From the NCBI GenBank assembly GCA_964526655.1, contig CAZGIZ010000002.1, positions 3,291 through 67,290 on the forward strand: a stretch of DNA of 64,000 nt, read 5' to 3'. Shown here in pieces: positions 1 to 9,802 of the stretch. The position numbers and the translations under genes were made by a program. A model generated the notes under the pieces. That model saw only the letters and a list, made by a program, of their open reading frames with translations, searched no databases and was not told the DNA's origin. The stretch is from an uncultured Desulfobacteraceae bacterium. Lineage in GTDB: Bacteria; Desulfobacterota; DSM-4660; Desulfatiglandales; HGW-15. Each line of letters starts with the position of its first letter. Within the stretch, counting starts at the first letter, position 1.

Positions 1-449
1 AGGCCACGGATGATATGACGCCCTATTATAACACCCATGCTATCATACTCAGTTCCAGGGGATTTGAAGACGAGGCTATGCGATACTGGGAAGAGGCCTC
101 CCGCATGGATACACAGGTGTCCTCCTATGTGAATGTCTCCCTGGCTGGAAAATATTATAGAAAAGGGGATGTCCGAAAGGCTCTCTTTTATCTTGAAAAG
201 ATCCCCGACGGCTCATTTGCGGCCTCTTATAAATATGAGATGATAGGCGACATAATTTTAGACCAGGGAGATGTTAAAAAGGCGGTATCGGCATATAAAA
301 AATCCCTGGAGGTAAATTCAGGGAGGAGAGAAATCAGGGAAAAACTGATCAAAATTTACTGGAGGATAGATAAAAAGAAGGCCTTGGATGAATACGAAAT
401 ATTGCAATATATCTCGTCATTCTATAATGAGTCTGATACTATTAAATAA
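1..449 (+). CDS. C-terminal TPR region of a GT-C/PMT_2-like membrane glycosyltransferase paralog (5' end lies outside the window)
   Basis: The frame is open from the window edge. The last ~140 aa align by hand at roughly 55-60% identity with the C-terminus of the 2855-4675 product (YYNTHAIILSS, SFAA..KYE, EKSLE.NSGRR, LIKI.WRIDK.KAL). Confidence 0.6.
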   Translation, partial: ATDDMTPYYNTHAIILSSRGFEDEAMRYWEEASRMDTQVSSYVNVSLAGKYYRKGDVRKALFYLEKIPDGSFAASYKYEMIGDIILDQGDVKKAVSAYKKSLEVNSGRREIREKLIKIYWRIDKKKALDEYEILQYISSFYNESDTIK

Positions 450-460
450 GGTTTCTATAG

Positions 461-548
461 ATGCCCCCGGATCAAGCCCGGGGCAGGCTTCTCAAGTCCG
501 GCATGACATCTGATACCCAGCTGCTCCGAGGCGAGGGAGTCCATTAAG
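461..548. repeat. GC-rich hairpin repeat module (CCCCGG-ATCAAGC-CCGGGG, TCAAGTCCGGCATGAC)
   Basis: Short palindromic GC-rich module in an otherwise AT-rich spacer. It shares the TCAAGCC(C)GGG core with the 134-nt repeat at 21958/33632/38898. It only supports a 28-codon ORF (MPPDQARGRLLKSGMT...). Confidence 0.5.
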
Positions 549-557
549 GGTCATAAA

Positions 558-1658
558 ATGCTCGATGTAAAATTTAAGCTTTTTCCTGGCCATATCACCG
601 AACGTGACTGGATGGCCCCTTCACCCCTCAGAACTCTTTTCTGGAATACGACCTATGCCTGCAACTTCAATTGCCGAATCTGTTTTACTGACGCGGGTAT
701 GGCTTCTTCTCGTGAACTGAACACACAGGAAGCCATGAACATGCTGGAGCATGCCCGTTCCGTAGGGGTAAAAAATATAATAATTTCAGGTGGAGAGCCC
801 TTTAAAAGAAAAGACATTTTAGATATCCTGAAATATATGGCCAAGCTGGGTCAAAGCACTCGTATAGCTTCAAACGGCAGTCTTTTAAATTATGAAGTCC
901 TTAAGATCTTGAGAGATGAGACTCTCACTAAATCTTTTCAAATAAGTATCGACACTTTAAATCCCGATCTCTACAGCAAATTTCACGGTGTATCAGCTGA
1001 TGAACTCGTAAATGTTCTAAATGTATTGAGGTATATCAAAAAGCTTGGTTTCCACACCACTGTTTCTTCTCGAATGACTCCACAAACACTGTCATCGATT
1101 CCCGAGCTTTTGGACAGGGCATACGAGGAGGGATGGGCCACTGTAACTGTGCATCTGCCATTGCTCACAGGCAGGGGGAAAAATGCCTTTTCCCAGGATA
1201 CGGACTTTTTGACCCTCTTGGAGCCTGCATTTGAGCATTTTTTGAAGTTGCCCGAAAAATGGCTTATTGAAATGTTCATACCATGGAGCCAATATCATCC
1301 AACATCAAAACATTTAGAAAAGAAAATAAAGACTGTTTATGCCGGTTGCCGGGGGGGACGAGACAGGTTGACGGTTAACCCAAACGGTGACATATCGTTT
1401 TGTGTCTGCCTGGATGTCCAGGAATTGTACCTGGGCAATATACGCGAAGACAATTTATTGGATATTTTCAGGAATTCATGGATTTGTGACATGCTACGAC
1501 ATCCCGAGAGTCACAACATCTGTAAAGATTGCAAACATGTTGCTGTATGCGGAGGTGGATGTAGAGTGGCAGCTTACGTTATTTCCGGAAGAATCGATGG
1601 GCAAGATGAATCATGCCCGCTTTATAGACATTATGGAACAGATACCGACAGCACTTGA
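558..1658 (+). CDS. radical SAM enzyme with C-terminal SPASM domain
   Basis: N-terminal CNFNCRIC (CX3CX2C) cluster motif and ISGGEPF. C-terminal CKDCKHVAVCGGGC (CX2CX5CX3C SPASM signature) plus an upstream C..GDISFCVC. Confidence 0.85.
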   Translation: MLDVKFKLFPGHITERDWMAPSPLRTLFWNTTYACNFNCRICFTDAGMASSRELNTQEAMNMLEHARSVGVKNIIISGGEPFKRKDILDILKYMAKLGQSTRIASNGSLLNYEVLKILRDETLTKSFQISIDTLNPDLYSKFHGVSADELVNVLNVLRYIKKLGFHTTVSSRMTPQTLSSIPELLDRAYEEGWATVTVHLPLLTGRGKNAFSQDTDFLTLLEPAFEHFLKLPEKWLIEMFIPWSQYHPTSKHLEKKIKTVYAGCRGGRDRLTVNPNGDISFCVCLDVQELYLGNIREDNLLDIFRNSWICDMLRHPESHNICKDCKHVAVCGGGCRVAAYVISGRIDGQDESCPLYRHYGTDTDST

Positions 1659-1673
1659 GGGAAACACACAATA

Positions 1674-2675
1674 TTGGCACTCTGGAAAGACGCAATCAGT
1701 GAGAGTATAGTCGGGAAAAGAGGCTTTTTTAAGATTTCCTCCCTATGGCTGCCACTTGCTCTTATCCTTCAAACTCATCCCATAGAAGATTTACGAGCCC
1801 GTTTATACTCATCCCTCTATTTGATAATTTCAATACAATGTTGGAGCATCGCCTGTAATCTGGTCAACGATCTATCCGATAAGAATGAAGACAAAGCGGC
1901 AGGGAAAAAGAGATGGATTTTCAAAGTATCAAGTCATGCAGGCATATTAATTATTATTCTCCTGGTTGGAACAGGTCTCTCCTTGATTATCTTGGTGAAA
2001 AGCAGGGGCGTTGTTATGATATCCTATGCTTTCGCGATGTTCTTGGGATTTATCTATTCTACTAGGCCGGTGCGATTCAAGGAACGCGGGGGTTATGGTT
2101 TACTCGCCTACAGTTTATCCGCAACACTTGCCTATGTCCTGGTTCCATGGACCCTATTCCATTCCAGTTTGACATTGTTGTTTATACTGATTTTTGTTGT
2201 CATGTCGGATAAATGGGTGAACCTTCATTTTCACCAGATTGTCGATTACTACGCGGATTTCAACTCTATGACGAGGACATATGCGGTTAAAGTGGGTCTC
2301 GAAAGGGCTCGCCTGTCTCTCCGGATTGCTTTCCTGCTGGCGTCTTTTTCAATGATAGTTGTCATAATGTATATATTATTGTCAGAGCAAGATATAACAT
2401 GGCGCATGATTATTTTATTGACATCCATAGGGATCATTATCGGAACCGGGGTCTACGCCTGTATCTTAAAAAAGAAAGCCAGTAAGGTATCAGAACTTAT
2501 CAATGAACTGCCATGGTTCTATCTGGGGTTAACATATCTTGCATTTCGTATTCTGCCTCCGGTTATATTTACTCATCTGTCGGTTAAGGTGCCGGTGATG
2601 TGGATACTGGTTACTCTGAGCTGTCTATCCTTACTGGGAGAATCATTCTATATGATTAGATATAAATATGAATGA
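1674..2675 (+). CDS. UbiA-family polyprenyl/prenyl transferase (integral membrane)
   Basis: Multi-TM protein with the Asp-rich NLVNDLSDKNED motif typical of UbiA prenyltransferases. Apparent TTG start at 1674, 16 nt after the rSAM stop. Confidence 0.7.
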   Translation: MALWKDAISESIVGKRGFFKISSLWLPLALILQTHPIEDLRARLYSSLYLIISIQCWSIACNLVNDLSDKNEDKAAGKKRWIFKVSSHAGILIIILLVGTGLSLIILVKSRGVVMISYAFAMFLGFIYSTRPVRFKERGGYGLLAYSLSATLAYVLVPWTLFHSSLTLLFILIFVVMSDKWVNLHFHQIVDYYADFNSMTRTYAVKVGLERARLSLRIAFLLASFSMIVVIMYILLSEQDITWRMIILLTSIGIIIGTGVYACILKKKASKVSELINELPWFYLGLTYLAFRILPPVIFTHLSVKVPVMWILVTLSCLSLLGESFYMIRYKYE

Positions 2676-2854
2676 AGATACCGTAGCATTAGTGTTAAAC
2701 AATTGTAATATTGAGATGAATTAGCTTTTGTAAGAAAATAAATTTATAAGTGTCCTATTTCCAATTGCTGCCCCCATGCGCACATCTGACATGTTAAATA
2801 TCCAGACATTAATAAGTAATATCTCCGAGCGTAGAAATCTGTGGTTAATTAAAT

Positions 2855-4675
2855 ATGGGAAAGAAGAGAAAAAGGGAATTAAAAAAGGGAGTTATTGATA
2901 GTATTATTGATATCTCTGATAGATATCCATACCAGTTATTATCAATCATTCTCCTTCTTGCCCTGATTTTAAGGATACTGGCCCTCCTGAGCCTTAAACA
3001 AAGTATCTATTCCGATTTTCTTATATGGGATGAGAGGGTATATCACAACTGGGCCATAAAAATCGCAAATGGAATATCTGTAACACCAGCCTATGATTTT
3101 GCCCCTCTTCCAGCCTATATAATGGCTATTATTTACAAATTATTCTCGCCGGATACCTTGTATATCAGGATCATGAATATCGGTTTTGGGGTCCTCACCT
3201 GTTTTTTAATCTATCTTATAGGAAAGGAGGTGGGAAATCGCATTACGGGTCTTGTTGCGTGTCTCATAGCATCTCTTTATAAACCTTTTATCTTTTTTAG
3301 TGTTACTCTTTTAAAGACATCTCTGTCACTGTTTCTTTTTGCATCTGCCATATACCTTGTAGCGGCCCTTATTGACAATCATTCGATGATAAAAGAGGTC
3401 CTGCTCGGGATTTTAATTGGTCTTATGATCAATGTCCGGCCTAACTGTGTGGTTCTTATCCCCCTTATCTTATTAATAATCCTTTGGGATAGTCGAAAAT
3501 GGAGACCTTCAATGAAGATGATTACCACAAAATTTATATCATACGTTGTTGGTCTATCCATAGCCATAGCTCCTTTTGCGATACTAAATTACCGCGTTTC
3601 CGGGGAATTTGGGCTGATCCCAATCGGCGGATTTAATCTTTATCTTGCAAATAATCTTCAGAATCCATATCCATATTATCGTCCCGTGCCCTTTGCCTCA
3701 TCATTGCCTTCCGAGCAGGCGATACATTTTATTATCGAGGCAAGCAAGAGGGAGGGCAAAAAGTTATCGCCGCGTGAAGCTTCATTATATTGGACCCATG
3801 AAGTTTTCAGGACCGCCTTAGAACGGCCAAATGCGATAACATTGAAGATATTTCAGAAGATAATGGCTTTTTTTAATCAATTCGAAGCGGCGGATAATTA
3901 TCACATAGGTTTTTTAAGCGACTACGTGAGGTTCTTAAAGTTTCCATTTTTAAGCTTCTTGCTGATTCTACCCTTCGGCATGGCAGGAATGGCAGTAAGT
4001 CTTACAGGCTCTAAAAAAGCCTTTGCTCTGGGCTCAATCTTTTTTTTATATGCCCTGACACTAATTATCTTTTTTACTAATATACGAATACGGCTGCCAA
4101 CATTGATAATCTTGATACCATTTGCGGTGATAGGGATCAATAGACTGCTCTTTTATATCAATAATCGCCGATTCAAAAGGATCATCGTCTATTTGGCCGT
4201 GGTTGCAGCTTTTTTCATCATAGAATTCCTCCCTCTCCGAGGCACAGGAGATATGACAGCCTATTACAACACCCACGCCATTATTCTCAGCTCAAAGGGA
4301 TTTGAAAGTGAAGCTGCCGCGTACTGGGAAAAATCATCCAAAATGAACAGGCCTTATTCCGCCTTCGCCAATCTCTCTCTGGCCGCGATGTATCTTAAAG
4401 GCGGAGAGATTAAGAAGACAAAATATTACATTGATAAGGTCTCCGATGAATCATTCGCAGCCGCTTCTAAATACGAACTCATGGGAGATATGATGATGCA
4501 TATGGGACAGAAGGAAAAGGCCGTGGCTGCGTATGAAAAATCACTCGAGATCAATTCCGGCCGGAGGGGAACCCGCTTGAAATTAATCAAGATACTCTGG
4601 CGGATTGATAAACAAAAGGCATTGGAAGAGCATGACAAGCTCGAATACATAAATTCATTTTATGATATCCTGTAA
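2855..4675 (+). CDS. GT-C fold (PMT_2/ArnT-like) membrane glycosyltransferase fused to a C-terminal TPR domain (TMTC-like architecture)
   Basis: 606 aa. About 450 aa form a polytopic membrane domain with ArnT/PMT_2-like hydrophobic organisation, followed by a ~140-aa TPR-like tail paralogous to ORF 1-449. Confidence 0.7.
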   Translation: MGKKRKRELKKGVIDSIIDISDRYPYQLLSIILLLALILRILALLSLKQSIYSDFLIWDERVYHNWAIKIANGISVTPAYDFAPLPAYIMAIIYKLFSPDTLYIRIMNIGFGVLTCFLIYLIGKEVGNRITGLVACLIASLYKPFIFFSVTLLKTSLSLFLFASAIYLVAALIDNHSMIKEVLLGILIGLMINVRPNCVVLIPLILLIILWDSRKWRPSMKMITTKFISYVVGLSIAIAPFAILNYRVSGEFGLIPIGGFNLYLANNLQNPYPYYRPVPFASSLPSEQAIHFIIEASKREGKKLSPREASLYWTHEVFRTALERPNAITLKIFQKIMAFFNQFEAADNYHIGFLSDYVRFLKFPFLSFLLILPFGMAGMAVSLTGSKKAFALGSIFFLYALTLIIFFTNIRIRLPTLIILIPFAVIGINRLLFYINNRRFKRIIVYLAVVAAFFIIEFLPLRGTGDMTAYYNTHAIILSSKGFESEAAAYWEKSSKMNRPYSAFANLSLAAMYLKGGEIKKTKYYIDKVSDESFAAASKYELMGDMMMHMGQKEKAVAAYEKSLEINSGRRGTRLKLIKILWRIDKQKALEEHDKLEYINSFYDIL

Positions 4676-4901
4676 ATAATCATTGTTATGTCGCGTAAAC
4701 TTGTTCTGGCAAGGATTTACAAAAACTTATGTCTTGACAAAGAGTTGTTTCTATAGAATTGTTGTTTCTTAGCTTTGTATCTTGCCAGTTGTACTGAACG
4801 ACCCTCGTCAACTTGCTTTGCCTGAAGGTGAGTGATCTCAACCATCCCTGAAAAGTACACGAATGGGGAAACAAGTAATATCAAATAAGAGGAGATGAAG
4901 C

Positions 4902-5420
4902 ATGAAAAGATTTTTTATCCTTACCGTAATATTCATTGGGATCATGCAGTTGTTGTCGTCAGCCGTGGTGCTGGCAGCGGATGTGAAAATAGGGGTGATC
5001 GATATCCAGAGAATAATGAAGGAATCCAGGGCCGCGAAGAATGCCCGTGCTGTTTTTTTTAAGGATGTTGAGCAAAAGAGAAAGCTCTTCAACGATAAAC
5101 AAAACGAGGTCCAGGCTATGGAGGAGGAGTTGAAGACTAAAGGAAAAGATATGACCCCGCAGGCAAGAAAAGAAAAGACCGATAATCTCGCAGATGAGAT
5201 CAAGGAACTGAAGCGCCTGAGGAGCGATCTGGAAGAGGAGTTGAAGAAAAAAGATAGAGAACTGACCCAGAGACTTTTAAGTGAGATTAGCGTGATAGTA
5301 GGGGAGTATCAAAAGAAAGAGAATTACACCATTATACTTGAAAAGAGATCGGTAGTCGCCTCTGATGAAGCAATCGATATCACGGATAAGATTATTAAAT
5401 TATATGATGTCGTGAAATAG
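4902..5420 (+). CDS. skp: OmpH/Skp family periplasmic chaperone
   Basis: Signal peptide (..VVLAADV). IGVIDIQRIM motif. Long charged coiled-coil region. 172 aa. AGGAG RBS. Confidence 0.85.
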   Translation: MKRFFILTVIFIGIMQLLSSAVVLAADVKIGVIDIQRIMKESRAAKNARAVFFKDVEQKRKLFNDKQNEVQAMEEELKTKGKDMTPQARKEKTDNLADEIKELKRLRSDLEEELKKKDRELTQRLLSEISVIVGEYQKKENYTIILEKRSVVASDEAIDITDKIIKLYDVVK

Positions 5421-5649
5421 CTTATTACCCATTTGAACCCGCGTTAATATGCAGACCTTATCAGACTGTCCCATCTAACAAAATCCACGCCCAAAGGAGA
5501 TGGCCTTGCCTTGAGGCAAAGACCACGAGATTTAAGTAATTTTTAAAAAAACAGGGAAAAGACACTGGATTTGGATTAAAGATTCACTCCGCTTCTGCCG
5601 ATTATTCATTTCAAGAGTTTTGATAAAAACATCGATATTTAGCTCATTC

Positions 5650-5815
5650 AGAACCACCGAGCAGATAATGAAGCTCCCCACCGCAAGCGGTGGGGTATCA
5701 AGCGGAATTCCGCCATAGCAACCCGGCTTCGCTTTTGCAAGCTTCGCCGTGGTTCACCTCGCCATTCATCCCCGCGGCAAGCCGCAGGGTATTCTGGCGA
5801 AGGCGAATAAAATCA
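5650..5815. repeat. GC-rich hairpin repeat cluster (CCCCACCGC-AA-GCGGTGGGG; CCCGCGGC-AA-GCCGCAGGG)
   Basis: Two 8-9 bp GC hairpins with AA loops (5676-5695, 5771-5789) and GGCGAA/TTCGCC inverted motifs, inside a 458-nt non-coding spacer. Confidence 0.5.
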
Positions 5816-5878
5816 TTAATGCCCGGTTAACTTCGGGACATTACTGAGTAAAAAGAATGAGTTAATTGGAGAACAATC

Positions 5879-8260
5879 ATGAAAAATCTCACCACCCTTT
5901 TCGCCGTTTTTACCCTGATTATCATCTCTCCATTTATCGCGCAGGCAGGGCCTGTAGGAAAATTCACAAATGTCGAGGGCAGGGTGGATATTACAAGACC
6001 GGACAAGGCTGCCGTTCCTGTCAAGGTCGGGGATGAGATTTATGAAAAGGATATTATCCGTACAAAGAGTAAATCAAAGGCTGAGATCGTCTTTTTTAAC
6101 GGCAACTCATTACGACTCGCCCAGAGCACAAGAGTGGAAATTTCGGAATGCATCACGGGAGAGCAGCGTAACAGTTCTGTTTTGAGGCTTTTCCGGGGCA
6201 AAATCCAGAGCAAGGTGAAAAAACTCGCTGGAAGGGTCTTTGGGATGAACAGGGACAGGTATGAGGTCCACACGCCCACAGCGGTATGCGGGGTGAGGGG
6301 AACCGATTTCTTCACATTCTACAGAAATGGGGTGACCGGCAATATCTTTAAGGAGGGAATAGGTTACGGCTATAGCAAAAACAAACCGGATGAGGTGAGG
6401 GAGATCCTGCCTGGTCAGACAATGCTTGTTACAAGCCCGGACCAGCCGCCCCTGGTGAGACCCACCACGGAGGAGGAGTTGATTCAGCACGAAGGGGATA
6501 CGGCACCTTCGAAAAAAGAGGAAGAGGGCGATGACGAGGAACAGACCGAGGACGAACAAAAGGATGAGCAGAAAGAGGTAAAAGAGGATTCCAGCGAGCA
6601 GGGTGAAGAAGACCAGGCCGTTGCAGAGGACGAGGGAGAGCAGCAGGTTGAAGCGGATGAAGAAGATCAGGGAAACGGCGGTAATGAGACTGAATCAGTT
6701 GATGCAGGAGCGGGAGTGAAGGCGGGTAAAGAGATTGATGCCGACCCACCGGGGAATGTTGTAAGTGGAGATAGTCCTTCAGAAGATAACGATTTGGGAG
6801 GATATAACGTCGGAAATTACGGTTCTGATGATACTATGGCCATTGATAATCTAAAGCCCGCCGATCCTGGCATAGAAAACGCACCGCCTGTTAAAACCGA
6901 TATGGGAAATACCGCCTCTCTTTTTGAAAATAATCCCCTCTATATTCCGCCCTCAATCCCTACAACAGAACCCTTTAAAATTGACAGTATCAAAATATCC
7001 GGCGACCTTATTGCGGGGCCATACATTTATTACGAGGATGGGAAAGAGGAATCGATATATAATTACTATCAAATGGATATGTCAGGCACCTTTTCAATGA
7101 CCCCTCCGTTTCTTCACATAAACGCTGGTGTTAGAGGAAACATCCTGACCGGGACCGGGCCGCTTAGCGGGGCCTATTATCTGGGCTTTGTCGGCGCGGA
7201 CTGGAGCGATCTCCGGTATGAGAGAGTCCGCGGGGTGGCCGTTATGTTTTATGTGGCCCCTGATGGGAGCGGAGGTATCCTTGACGGCGACATATTTGGA
7301 GATTACCTCAGCTCAGGAACCTGGCAGGCTAAGGGTTATATGGTACCCATAGAGATGGTCGATAGCGGACTCCCCTTTGACTTTCCCCCTATCACTAATA
7401 AACAACTCTTCCTTAATGAGGCGGCCGGTTTTTTTGAGGCGCCCGGCGACGGTACCATATCTGTGGACTGGGGTCACGGTCAAATGCTTTCCATCACCGA
7501 TCAGGACTGGGGGCTATGGCGGTCTGAATTTGGAGGCTCCTTTACAAACAACATATATGATAAATGGGTTATTGAGTGGAAAGACAGCTCTCCTACGCCT
7601 TCAGATGCCGTCCAGCGCTACTATTACACCCTGGGTAAATTCTGGAAAAGGGGTGAGATGGACGGAGATGTATCAGGTGGTTGGGTTGATCTGGAAAAGG
7701 TGACAACCGGTATATTTGAGGGGGGGATGCATGGCGTCTATAACCCCAATGATCCAGCAGGAAACTATTTTGCCGTGTCAGGAGGCGCCTGGATAGAGAC
7801 CAATAAATTTCTTGAGATGGTCTCCACCTCACAGGGACAGGAAAGGTTGAACGCCCTCTATATACCTTGCATTGAAGTGGGCAGGGCTGATCTTTCACTT
7901 TCAGGCAGTGACACGGTTTTTAACGCGGTCAACATGAATAATGTGATCTTCTTTGCCAATTCAACTGGAGGCGCCCCGCGAATCTGGGCCACGAATGAAG
8001 TTGATGGAACCTATTCCTCCATACCCTCGGTGGGTCACGCCGTAAACCTCACGGGAAACGGGCTAAGTGTGGACTTCACGGTTAAAAAATGGAACGACAG
8101 TGTCTGGAGCGCGGATGTCAAGGGCAGTGGAGTATACAGCGGGAGCGGCACACTGAATAATACGGACATCAGAATGGACGGAGGCGCTGCCGGGACCTAT
8201 TCAGGCAGCGATTTCTCGGGCACAGCGGCAGGGGCGTCCCGTGTGTTGCCGCCTCCATAA
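5879..8260 (+). CDS. secreted FecR-domain protein with acidic linker and large uncharacterised C-terminal region
   Basis: Signal peptide (..SPFIAQAG). N-terminal FecR-like region (GRVDITRPD.., VHTPTAVCGVRGTDF). E/D-rich low-complexity stretch at about nt 6490-6700. About 450 aa of G/W/Y/D-rich C-terminus. Confidence 0.7.
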   Translation: MKNLTTLFAVFTLIIISPFIAQAGPVGKFTNVEGRVDITRPDKAAVPVKVGDEIYEKDIIRTKSKSKAEIVFFNGNSLRLAQSTRVEISECITGEQRNSSVLRLFRGKIQSKVKKLAGRVFGMNRDRYEVHTPTAVCGVRGTDFFTFYRNGVTGNIFKEGIGYGYSKNKPDEVREILPGQTMLVTSPDQPPLVRPTTEEELIQHEGDTAPSKKEEEGDDEEQTEDEQKDEQKEVKEDSSEQGEEDQAVAEDEGEQQVEADEEDQGNGGNETESVDAGAGVKAGKEIDADPPGNVVSGDSPSEDNDLGGYNVGNYGSDDTMAIDNLKPADPGIENAPPVKTDMGNTASLFENNPLYIPPSIPTTEPFKIDSIKISGDLIAGPYIYYEDGKEESIYNYYQMDMSGTFSMTPPFLHINAGVRGNILTGTGPLSGAYYLGFVGADWSDLRYERVRGVAVMFYVAPDGSGGILDGDIFGDYLSSGTWQAKGYMVPIEMVDSGLPFDFPPITNKQLFLNEAAGFFEAPGDGTISVDWGHGQMLSITDQDWGLWRSEFGGSFTNNIYDKWVIEWKDSSPTPSDAVQRYYYTLGKFWKRGEMDGDVSGGWVDLEKVTTGIFEGGMHGVYNPNDPAGNYFAVSGGAWIETNKFLEMVSTSQGQERLNALYIPCIEVGRADLSLSGSDTVFNAVNMNNVIFFANSTGGAPRIWATNEVDGTYSSIPSVGHAVNLTGNGLSVDFTVKKWNDSVWSADVKGSGVYSGSGTLNNTDIRMDGGAAGTYSGSDFSGTAAGASRVLPPP

Positions 8261-8380
8261 AGTATTGAATTATGGGGTTAGCCGGATAACACAATATCAT
8301 TTGGTTGATTTTTCATCACTTCTGAGTTTATCATATCAATAATTGCTCTCTTGGATGTCAGTGGATAATTTCCTTTTTTC

Positions 8381-9802
8381 TTGGCAAAGGCTGCTCTGGT
8401 TATGTTCCATGGTTTCAATAATCAAAGGATGATAAGACTCGCTTTATTCTTAGGGTTGTTCCCATTGGTTTTCTTTGTATCTCCACGGCTCTCCGTGGCC
8501 TACAACCATCCATTACTTATAAAATTTATCATTGAATATAACCTCAGGGCCATTGAAAAGGGCCTGGTCAATGGCACTTACAGGGGAGAGGAGGGGATCC
8601 TTGGCATCAGGCCTGAAATAGCCGACTCCCTCGGATTGAAGGTCTATATTGACCAGGACTATCTGGATGCCAGCAGATTGTTGAAGGAGGCGGACAGGTA
8701 TCTCACGAAGGCCAAAATGTCCATGGCCTCAAGGGAGAAGGCGCCACATTCGGGTTATCATGAGAAGAAAATCGCTGACTATTTTATCTCCTACAGGACG
8801 AGTTCCGATGAGGCTATAAAGAAACTGATGCTTTATCATTCAAAGCTTGAACCGGGCATCGATGAAAGGCTTGATGAATCCCTTTGCTCTGGCCTGATCG
8901 ACAGTATCCTGGAAGAGGGCCTAAAAAAGGCGGATAATAGACTAAGGGACGGCCTGGGAAACTTTTTCAATAGGTGTCAGGGAGAAGCTGAAAAGGACTT
9001 TTCTTTGACACCCGAAAATGTCCGCTTTGTAAACTATGTGTTTAAAAAGTTCCTTGAAAATGCCCCGGAAAAAGAGATCAAAAAATATGATCTCGACAGA
9101 TACAGCAGTTACAGGGACAAGCAAACAGCCCACAACTGGAAAGAGGCGGCTGGAAATGACATAGCAAGGTTTTCCAGCTCACTGGAGGCGGCATTGAAGG
9201 ATCTGGAGAATGAGAACAATGTTGTGGATCCGCTGCTCTTCATAGCGCTCATGAAAAAGGAGTCCTCCTTTAATCCCCTGTCGGTTTCACACGTCGGGGC
9301 CGCCGGGTTGACACAGATCATGCCGAGGACGGCGAAGGATATGGGAATGAATAACATCCATATGCCCAACTATTTCCTTGAGGCGGAATCTCTCATGAAA
9401 AGTGAGCGCGAGACCAGGGAACAGGCCATGGAAGCACTTTACATGATAGAGGGAAAAGACAGCCTCAAGCACGCAAAACGGGCGCGGGAGCTTACGCAGA
9501 AATCTCTTGAGATGGGGAGGAAGAGGGGAAAATTATTTTACAAATACAGGAAGGATCTCCTGAGGAACCAGACCGATGAAAGGCTTCAGCCGGCCAAGGC
9601 CATCCGGTACGGTCTCAGGTATTTTGCGAGATCGCTGAGGGATCAAGGGGGCGATATCAGCCTTGCCCTGGCCTCCTATAATGCGGGCCCCCATCGAATA
9701 AAGAGGTTTAAAGGCATACCCCCCTACGATGAGACAGTGGCTTTCAGGAACAGGGTACTGGAATTCTACAGGGATTACTTAAAAAAGGCCGGGGGCAGAT
9801 AG
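8381..9802 (+). CDS. lytic murein transglycosylase (SLT domain) protein
   Basis: SLT catalytic motif ESSFNPLSVSHVGAAGLTQIMPRTA and AYNAGP. The ORF opens with TTG at 8381. A more likely start is the Met at 8429, which gives the signal peptide MIRLALFLGLFPLVFF. Confidence 0.8.
   Translation: MAKAALVMFHGFNNQRMIRLALFLGLFPLVFFVSPRLSVAYNHPLLIKFIIEYNLRAIEKGLVNGTYRGEEGILGIRPEIADSLGLKVYIDQDYLDASRLLKEADRYLTKAKMSMASREKAPHSGYHEKKIADYFISYRTSSDEAIKKLMLYHSKLEPGIDERLDESLCSGLIDSILEEGLKKADNRLRDGLGNFFNRCQGEAEKDFSLTPENVRFVNYVFKKFLENAPEKEIKKYDLDRYSSYRDKQTAHNWKEAAGNDIARFSSSLEAALKDLENENNVVDPLLFIALMKKESSFNPLSVSHVGAAGLTQIMPRTAKDMGMNNIHMPNYFLEAESLMKSERETREQAMEALYMIEGKDSLKHAKRARELTQKSLEMGRKRGKLFYKYRKDLLRNQTDERLQPAKAIRYGLRYFARSLRDQGGDISLALASYNAGPHRIKRFKGIPPYDETVAFRNRVLEFYRDYLKKAGGR

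Follow-up and report, generated by a model that had tools for sequence, protein, structure and literature searches.

What might a radical S-adenosylmethionine (SAM) enzyme and a UbiA-superfamily membrane transferase be doing between two genes for GT-C glycosyltransferases? The question is raised by a gene block in a 64,000-nucleotide stretch of DNA from an uncultured Desulfobacteraceae bacterium (GenBank assembly GCA_964526655.1, contig CAZGIZ010000002.1, positions 3,291 to 67,290), the whole of which is referred to here as the window. An interpretation made from the letters alone, hereafter the sequence-only reading, had described the block as a self-contained periplasmic glycosylation module, and it was followed up with family searches, structural models and a survey of related loci (designated by L numbers). 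The genes concerned are the following:

3-449, forward strand: 3' end of GT-C/TPR paralogue no. 1 (148 codons plus stop; only the TPR tail, predicted to be periplasmic, lies inside the window)
558-1658, forward strand: radical-SAM/SPASM enzyme, here called rSAM-A (366 amino acids, aa)
1674-2675, forward strand: UbiA-superfamily integral membrane transferase (333 aa)
2855-4675, forward strand: GT-C glycosyltransferase no. 2 (606 aa), with a PMT_2 domain and a TPR tail
5879-8260, forward strand: secreted FecR-domain protein (793 aa), tentatively associated with the other four

The locus represents an envelope module, operon-like in layout, that is conserved in a Thermodesulfobacteriota lineage. 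With regard to its function, we tentatively favor a reading in which the rSAM-UbiA pair produces or modifies a membrane molecule linked to an isoprenoid, which the GT-C/TPR enzymes would take as their donor or alter as their acceptor, and we hold this to be quite possible rather than probable. The four module genes are separated in the open reading frame (ORF) list by gaps of 108, 15 and 179 nucleotides (nt), the UbiA start codon lying 15 nt past the rSAM stop codon. Both the ORFs and the Pfam matches agree with the order originally read, i.e. a partial GT-C gene, rSAM/SPASM, UbiA and a second GT-C gene on one strand with short gaps, and the family assignments (Radical_SAM/SPASM, UbiA, PMT_2 and TPR) were all recovered by profile searches, with Pfam and NCBIfam scans covering the seven genes at 1-9802. 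Exact-sequence searches with the window rSAM and UbiA, aimed at reaching further upstream, gave no match; as the source contig measures 67.8 kb, no more than ∼3.7 kb of it falls beyond the window.

Five related Thermodesulfobacteriota lineages carry the grouping as well, one of them with the order of the rSAM and UbiA genes swapped. L089 and L090 have the same order as the window (GT-C, rSAM, UbiA, GT-C), with an rSAM 67% identical to that of the window, while L084 and L085 carry GT-C, rSAM and UbiA. L083, which encodes the same rSAM protein as L084 and L085, continues OmpH-OmpH-SLT...GrpE-DnaK like the window. Three GT-C paralogues are present in L082, one of which overlaps the end of the UbiA gene by 8 nt. 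The swapped arrangement is that of L091 (7925-12043), where GT-C, UbiA and rSAM (the pair inverted relative to the window) are followed by OmpH-SLT and the UbiA protein is a shorter, 276-aa form. Because the grouping outlasts internal rearrangement and includes overlapping reading frames, it appears to be good evidence of functional coupling within the clade. The rSAM, UbiA and GT-C genes had been expected to be conserved together, and they proved to be so in L082, L083/L084/L085, L089/L090 and L091; since, in addition, the membrane domain scores as PMT_2 and no peptide substrate gene for the SPASM enzyme was found (see below), the skeleton of the module stands as real and conserved.

The 606-aa protein matched PMT_2 (PF13231) over residues 83-232 at 3.2e-14 (53.9 bits against a gathering cutoff of 26.1), and its tail matched TPR_21 (7.6e-08), with TPR_21 and TPR_2 together covering residues 486-570. 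A structural model (predicted local distance difference test score, pLDDT, 89.3; predicted template modelling score, pTM, 0.88; 37 homologues in the input) found its best solved matches in STT3, AglB, PglB and Pmt4 (E 1e-5 to 7e-4; Foldseek, PDB), so that on the strength of the model the GT-C fold is assigned with confidence, in line with the original assignment of the membrane domain to GT-C/PMT_2. Residues D59, E60, Y63 and H64 in the first periplasmic loop were invariant in the 37 homologues. Hydropathy and the positive-inside rule gave 11 transmembrane (TM) segments with the Lys/Arg-rich N-terminus inside, and because of this topology the TPR tail (approximately residues 465-604, after TM11; a helical repeat over residues 468-604 in the model) is predicted to be periplasmic. 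The family is abundant in Desulfobacterota, where homologues are labelled "glycosyltransferase family 39" or "ArnT-like" in the source annotation.

The partial ORF at 3-449 matched TPR_21 (1.9e-08) plus TPR_2 in Pfam, and scored 5e-67 with a GT-C hidden Markov model (HMM) built in this analysis. Over 142 aa, its tail shares 57% identity with residues 463-604 of the downstream GT-C, within the 55-60% aligned by hand in the sequence-only reading; with the tail of an intact 610-aa PMT_2/TPR protein, encoded at the corresponding site upstream of the rSAM gene in L084 and L085, the figure is 66%. Because of these two identities, the truncated gene is judged from its sequence to be a genuine GT-C/TPR paralogue. 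The likeness to eukaryotic TMTC O-mannosyltransferases that had been pointed out holds for the layout of a GT-C membrane domain followed by a periplasmic TPR tail, but not for family membership: the Pfam matches of the 606-aa protein (E <= 0.01) were to PMT_2 and TPR families only, and did not include DUF1736, which we take to be the TMTC-specific signature.

The cytoplasmic rSAM-A matched Radical_SAM at 4.3e-23 and SPASM at 1.6e-10. All of the cysteine motifs quoted in the sequence-only reading are present (C35x3C39x2C42 and C322x2C325x5C331x3C335), as is the quoted UbiA motif. Eleven cysteines are invariant in 24 sequences (C35, C39, C42, C264, C282, C284, C322, C325, C331, C335 and C353), and the eight toward the C-terminus would be enough for two auxiliary clusters. 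The protein matches no curated NCBIfam family: the top-scoring model, NirJ2, gave 146 bits where the cutoff is 500. Members from different phyla are 53-73% identical to one another, and in a library clustered at 50% identity the family had a single full-length representative (425 bits), the next full-length matches scoring 180-210 bits. These values indicate a sharply delimited orthologue group that spans many anaerobic phyla, including Thermodesulfobacteriota, Aminicenantes, Planctomycetota/Brocadiaceae, Elusimicrobia, Sumerlaeota, Acidobacteriota and Spirochaetota. The nearest solved relatives by sequence are PqqE (1e-20), SuiB (5e-20) and CteB. With only 34 residues preceding the radical-SAM motif, which starts at residue 35, the enzyme has no recognition element (RRE)/PqqD domain of the kind used for ribosomally synthesized and post-translationally modified peptides (RiPPs); no intergenic small ORF was conserved in related loci (tblastn, all E > 0.03), and no PqqD-like gene was found in any of the 35 loci surveyed. 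The absence of a precursor peptide that had been remarked upon is thus upheld by the lack of both a conserved small ORF and an RRE domain. A coherent archaeal group of rSAM/SPASM proteins, ∼25% identical to that of the window and usually encoded 4-6 kb from a second rSAM gene, was also observed in Bathyarchaeia (L033-L073). Having no UbiA, F1 or F2 neighbors (F1 and F2 are described below), this group from the genome scan was dropped as uninformative.

The UbiA protein matched PF01040 at 4.6e-11 (42.9 bits against a cutoff of 34.2) and contains the motif N62-LVNDLSDKNED-73. Its family-invariant motifs are N65-D-x2-D69-x3-D73, YSxxPxRxKxRG and D191-x3-D195, the last being followed by GxxT as in ChlG, AfUbiA and DGGGPS. 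NCBIfam matches of the family were weak (ChlG, BchG, archaeal prenyltransferases, MenA, HPT). A family profile run against the PDB found AfUbiA (4tq3) best at 2e-6 and ChlG at 3e-4, and the model (pLDDT 93) matched UbiA-fold structures, led in Foldseek by AfUbiA (4tq4, 1e-5), with DGGGPS (7bpu) at 5e-4 to 9e-4 and DPPRS (8j8j) ranking 14th at 1.2e-2. Identity to the AfUbiA/DGGGPS-type matches is only 15-19%. The protein is therefore best described, by sequence and fold, as a divergent member of the superfamily that appears closest to archaeal prenyl-diphosphate enzymes (AfUbiA, DGGGPS); its substrate is not readable from these matches. The sequence-only reading had pointed to DPPRS, the decaprenyl-phosphate phosphoribosyltransferase of mycobacteria, as a precedent, and here the evidence went the other way: the DPPRS model NF008978 did not match the window protein and matched two of 22 family members, at 4e-4; a PDB search with the family profile retrieved no DPPRS chain at E <= 10, despite the presence of 8j8j in that database; and identity to 8j8j in the structural alignment was 10%. 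Characterized PPPRS enzymes are 31-34% identical to DPPRS and to each other, and the loop IV motif of DPPRS/PPPRS has been described as R...E (PMC11127046).

Outside the clade of the window, a scan of one genome per species yielded 30 orthologous rSAM loci, all from metagenome-assembled genomes, with sources in Aminicenantes, Brocadiaceae/Planctomycetota, Sumerlaeota, Elusimicrobia, Acidobacteriota and Desulfaltia. Surveyed with HMMs, these loci showed four recurrent partners:

F1, ∼305 aa, QueG/RDH-like iron-sulfur (Fe-S) protein: 27 of 30 loci, immediately upstream of the rSAM gene
UbiA: 22 of 30 loci, immediately downstream of the rSAM gene in 19
Second rSAM/SPASM protein: 20 of 30 loci
F2, ∼190 aa, IDI-like Nudix protein: 14 of 30 loci

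The rSAM-UbiA pair thus belongs to a sharply delimited cross-phylum cassette. F1 (L005 4621-5559, L082 9082-10008 and 25 other loci) carries two ferredoxin-type cysteine motifs and often overlaps the rSAM start codon; its highest-ranking families are QueG and RDH, and those of the second rSAM are, as for rSAM-A, NirJ2 and AhbD. F2 scores slightly below the IDI-1 equivalog cutoffs. Compared with E. coli Idi, it keeps every metal and diphosphate ligand of IDI-1 (H25, H32, H69, E114, E116, R51, K55, Y104 and W161), but the catalytic Cys67 is replaced by Ala in each of the 14 sequences (L012 8532-9065, L013 1612-2146 and 12 others), suggesting that it may hydrolyze or bind an isoprenoid diphosphate without isomerizing it. 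A GGR-like gene was found in L082. Taken as sequence similarities, the conserved partners of the pair would point to isoprenoid and Fe-S radical chemistry. F1 is absent from L084, L085, L089, L091 and the window, and because none of F1, F2 and the second rSAM was found by tblastn anywhere in the 64 kb, the window holds a reduced version of the cassette with GT-C genes on its flanks. Neither the wider grouping of rSAM, UbiA and GT-C genes nor the five-gene cassette was described in any paper found by full-text searches, and a review of radical-SAM enzymes acting on lipids (PMC13459092) lists no such enzyme.

Among the 115 ORFs flanking the 30 loci, PMT_2 was one of the most recurrent non-core families. 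PMT_2 genes non-orthologous to those of the window adjoin the pair in three further lineages: in Aminicenantes L003; in Brocadiaceae L004 and Planctomycetota L011, where they are mutually orthologous and convergent with the UbiA gene; and in Elusimicrobia L015, where there are three copies and a GT2 gene. Three further ORFs (L015:11982, L008:12208 and L021:11054) were tried as cryptic GT-Cs and rejected, as hhalign matched the TPR part of L015:11982 only and nothing in the other two, and Jackhmmer linked only the L004, L011 and L026 membrane proteins to one another. The association with GT-Cs outside the clade is real but confined to a minority, roughly eight of the 30 loci or fewer. No phosphatase, flippase or polyprenyl synthase recurred among the neighbor families in the 115 flanking ORFs, and the recurrent neighbors likewise included no genes of tetrapyrrole, quinone or glycerol-ether pathways (GGGPS, G1PDH, Ahb, Mqn). 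In three Aminicenantes loci (L012 7034-8446, L013 120-1532 and L020 7004-8407), a gene for a GPAT/PlsB-like glycerol-3-phosphate acyltransferase was observed directly upstream of the five-gene cassette, a possible link, judging from its similarity, to glycerolipid metabolism.

Under the reading that we favor, the UbiA enzyme would act at the cytoplasmic face, coupling a polar head group with an isoprenoid (di)phosphate by way of its two Asp-rich Mg2+ sites. The rSAM/SPASM enzyme would then tailor the membrane-bound intermediate through O2-independent radical chemistry, and the isoprenoid-linked product would serve on the periplasmic side as donor or acceptor for the GT-C/TPR enzymes, whose TPR tails would recruit the targets, most plausibly the large secreted FecR/Big_13 proteins encoded nearby. 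There is precedent for UbiA-family enzymes feeding GT-C enzymes through lipid-linked donors (PMC11127046). The isoprenoid theme of the cassette, comprising the IDI-like F2, the GGR-like gene of L082 and a UbiA protein nearest AfUbiA/DGGGPS, lends support to the isoprenoid part of this scheme. Six GT2 genes of related loci were also sought in the 64 kb, and since no homologue of any of them turned up, UbiA is left as the sole lipid-handling enzyme whose gene adjoins those of the GT-Cs.

Several observations nevertheless weigh against this reading. Homologues of the window GT-C (50-60% identity) occur beside GT2 genes in loci lacking both rSAM and UbiA:

L086, GT-C/TPR homologue: neighbors are GerE, a FecR protein and a GT2 gene; no rSAM/UbiA
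L087, GT-C/TPR homologue: neighbors are a 3236-aa Big_13 protein, a GT2 gene and sulfotransferases; no rSAM/UbiA
L088, GT-C/TPR homologue: neighbors are two GT2 genes and a sulfatase; no rSAM/UbiA

In addition, GT2 (1-167), PMT_2 (320-471) and TPR (728-808) domains are joined in a single 848-aa protein (P0285, encoded on a 5054-bp JGI contig) that shares 56% identity with the window GT-C, although a gene-calling artefact is possible. The fusion is a Rosetta-stone hint that the GT-C family normally takes its donor from a Dpm1/GtrB-like GT2 enzyme, and because of it and of the pair-free homologues adjoining GT2 genes, the family does not appear to need a UbiA-made donor in general. About 22 of the 30 loci from other phyla have no GT-C within 4 kb of the cassette, and the QueG-like partner present in 27 of those 30 is missing from the window. 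The Wzx-type flippase of L082 has no homologue in the 64 kb, and no flippase or phosphatase was found at 1-9802 by Pfam and NCBIfam, with no dedicated MATE, SMR or GtrA queries made beyond position 9802. Surface-glycan pathways are usually variable, and for this reason the conservation of the rSAM (at least ∼50% identity across phyla) would seem a better fit to a housekeeping cofactor or lipid pathway than to a surface-glycan pathway. The description of the module as self-contained consequently had to be given up: homologues of the GT2, Wzx-type flippase, F1 and GGR-like genes are all missing from the 64 kb, the last having been sought with the GGR-like gene that flanks a related locus, a phosphatase is missing at 1-9802, and the constant partners of the pair elsewhere are not GT-Cs.

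Many of the same observations would be explained if the pair and its usual partners built an isoprenoid membrane lipid or lipid-anchored cofactor of their own (possible products being an ether-type prenyl lipid, a quinone-like compound or a prenylated tetrapyrrole), with the GT-C/TPR enzymes acting as GT2-fed protein O-glycosyltransferases on FecR/Big_13 proteins and sharing with the pair no more than envelope synteny. We regard this as rather unlikely, yet as a serious contender. It accords with the ranking of the core partners in the 30 loci (F1 27, UbiA 22, second rSAM 20, IDI-like 14, GT-Cs a minority), with the sharp limits and high conservation of the rSAM family, and with the GT-C/TPR homologues that have GT2 genes and no pair in L086-L088, together with the GT2 fusion. 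The window and L083 are likewise consistent with it, since GT-C no. 2 and the FecR gene are present together in the former and absent together from the latter. The chemistry suggested by similarity also fits: the UbiA protein is nearest AfUbiA/DGGGPS in sequence and fold, with weak HMM matches to ChlG, BchG, MenA and HPT, both rSAMs rank NirJ2/AhbD highest and F1 ranks QueG/RDH highest, and a GPAT-like gene lies upstream in three Aminicenantes loci and a GGR-like gene in L082. However, the NirJ/AhbD, ChlG and QueG similarities are far below curated cutoffs, which counts against a tetrapyrrole product in particular, and those to NirJ/AhbD and ChlG are expected of any minimal SPASM or UbiA protein. 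GGGPS, G1PDH, Ahb and Mqn genes are not among the recurrent neighbors. Mere synteny also sits poorly with GT-C/TPR genes that stay with the pair in five Thermodesulfobacteriota lineages, despite a swap of order and with overlapping stop and start codons, and with the non-orthologous PMT_2 genes adjoining it in three other phyla. A broader form of the favored reading would make rSAM-A and UbiA the core of an unrecognized cross-phylum anaerobe pathway, in which a radical-built isoprenoid-linked head group is transferred by PMT_2-type GT-Cs onto secreted or envelope targets, or is decorated by them; at this breadth we think the claim unlikely.

Radical-SAM dehydrogenases and epimerases acting on sugar-like secondary alcohols, such as BtrN and NeoN, make it conceivable that the locus runs the scheme of mycobacterial decaprenylphosphoryl arabinose (DPA), along the lines of the sequence-only reading, with UbiA as a DPPRS/PPPRS-type phosphoribosyltransferase, the rSAM as an anaerobic 2'-epimerase/oxidase replacing DprE1/DprE2, and the GT-Cs transferring a pentofuranose. 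UbiA-GT-C adjacency is indeed conserved, the window has no GT2 homologue, and the Cys-less IDI-like Nudix protein could in principle hydrolyze a prenyl diphosphate to the monophosphate acceptor; systems that combine a UbiA-family synthase with a GT-C and varying auxiliary epimerases are known (PMC11127046). The UbiA protein itself, however, does not look the part: NF008978 misses it and the PDB profile search gave no DPPRS chain at E <= 10, its 10% identity to 8j8j compares with 31-34% among characterized PPPRS/DPPRS, and it keeps the canonical D191x3D195 where the published DPPRS/PPPRS loop IV motif is R...E. Nor was a 5'-phosphatase or a MATE/SMR/GtrA flippase found at 1-9802, dedicated MATE/SMR/GtrA queries not having been run further on. 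The ribose-to-arabinose scheme is thus not favored by the data, and we consider it improbable. More improbable by far is a role for the rSAM/SPASM enzyme as a RiPP maturase acting on a small nearby peptide whose product UbiA would prenylate. Its nearest solved relatives (PqqE, SuiB and CteB) are peptide-modifying SPASM enzymes, but a radical-SAM motif at residue 35 leaves no room for an RRE/PqqD domain, the gaps between the genes measure merely 108, 15 and 179 nt and contain no conserved small ORF, and the 35 loci contain no PqqD-like gene.

The closest published parallel is provided by the three-component pentofuranose and mycobacterial DPA systems, in which a PPPRS or DPPRS (Rv3806c) is combined with a flippase and a GT-C, together with DprE1/E2 or SDR epimerases (Kelly et al. 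2024, PMC11127046). As in those systems, a UbiA-superfamily gene lies beside a GT-C gene, an extra redox-type enzyme could diversify the lipid-linked head group, and the final transfer would be extracytoplasmic. In contrast to them, the window UbiA is not a DPPRS/PPPRS orthologue, no phosphatase (PAP2, HAD-PRP) or flippase was found at 1-9802, the GT-C is of the PMT_2 type (GT39/GT83-like) with a TPR tail rather than GT136, Emb or Aft, and the auxiliary enzyme is a radical-SAM/SPASM protein, a type absent from that paper. With the GT2 and GT-C pairs (Ppm1/Dpm1-PMT, ArnC-ArnT, GtrB-Gtr*), the window GT-C shares the PMT_2 domain and an invariant Asp-Glu in the first periplasmic loop, and its homologues adjoin small GT2 genes in L082, L086, L087 and L088 or, in P0285, are fused to one; unlike in those pairs, the window GT-Cs are coupled to rSAM and UbiA, and the 64 kb contain no homologue of those GT2 genes. 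The eukaryotic TMTC1-4 O-mannosyltransferases likewise combine a GT-C membrane domain with TPR repeats at the C-terminus that lie outside the cytoplasm, but the window protein is bacterial, its TPR tail is much shorter (∼140 aa) and it has no TMTC-specific Pfam match, so that the likeness is architectural only.

A further comparison may be drawn with archaeal isoprenoid-lipid enzymes, since AfUbiA and DGGGPS are the best UbiA matches and IDI-like and GGR-like genes occur in the wider cassette; the systems differ in that UbiA identity is 15-19%, no GGGPS or G1P dehydrogenase gene lies nearby and the hosts are bacterial. Radical-SAM enzymes of the SPASM type that modify isoprenoid lipids embedded in the membrane form an established class (Tes, Gms, GrsA/B; PMC13459092). 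Unlike the Tes-type enzyme (7tol, 526 residues), the window rSAM has 366 aa and its match is confined to the radical-SAM core. If the favored reading is true, the radical-SAM/UbiA route would represent a third, oxygen-independent way to make or tailor GT-C lipid donors: to the best of our knowledge, GT-C donor routes are known only from GT2-type polyprenyl-phosphate sugar synthases and from UbiA-family synthases that depend on phosphoribosyl pyrophosphate (PRPP). It would also offer a first functional handle on a strongly conserved rSAM family with no curated family or name; in the broader form that we think unlikely, it would represent a new class of lipid-linked donor chemistry, distinct from GT2-made and PRPP-derived donors. 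Even if the pair is independent of glycosylation, a five-gene cassette with a Cys-less IDI-like protein directs attention to isoprenoid chemistry that has yet to be explored in uncultured anaerobes.

Downstream of the module, Pfam agrees with the Skp (OmpH 1.6e-25), FecR-domain and SLT proteins named in the sequence-only reading. The FecR protein (FecR 9.8e-11) has an N-terminal hydrophobic segment at residues 3-21 and a long acidic low-complexity linker, and over its N-terminal 213 aa it shares 50% identity with a FecR protein (L086 8068-9108) encoded directly upstream of a GT-C/TPR homologue. Giant FecR/Big_13 proteins are encoded directly upstream of GT-C/TPR genes in L082 (1-2064), L087 (1-9397) and L091 (1393-7656), and the syntenic L083 lacks both the FecR gene and GT-C no. 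2. We infer from this that the window FecR protein is a candidate substrate of the GT-C/TPR enzymes, and that secreted FecR/Big_13 proteins would be the most plausible targets for recruitment by the TPR tails. The repeated pairing of GT-C/TPR genes with giant FecR/Big_13 genes suggests a testable protein O-glycosylation system in sulfate-reducer-type bacteria.

With respect to composition, the GC fraction of positions 1-5000 is 0.39-0.43, as against ∼0.52 for the dnaK region and ∼0.48 for the whole window, in keeping with the AT-rich block noticed at the outset. Horizontal transfer was considered as an explanation of the low GC and rejected, the locus being syntenic with L083 and L091 upstream of Skp-SLT-GrpE-DnaK. 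Because of this synteny, because several other 1-kb bins of the window are equally low in GC, and because AT-rich composition is expected for membrane proteins, the low GC most probably reflects membrane-protein composition and not foreign origin. Rfam and tRNA scans of the module region found nothing, and a promoter and terminator scan of 1-6000 gave counts no higher than those expected from shuffled sequence. An inverted repeat, GCCCCCGG-ATCAAG-CCCGGGGC, lies at ∼461-482 in the 108-nt gap between the GT-C and rSAM genes, with no T-run after it and no call in the terminator scan. Lastly, sulfotransferase, sulfatase and arylsulfotransferase genes were observed near GT-C and rSAM-UbiA loci (L082 15111-19815, L087 11969-12892 and 20367-21077, L088 15151-17233 and L003 6857-8533), and the recurrence of such genes hints at sulfated glycans.

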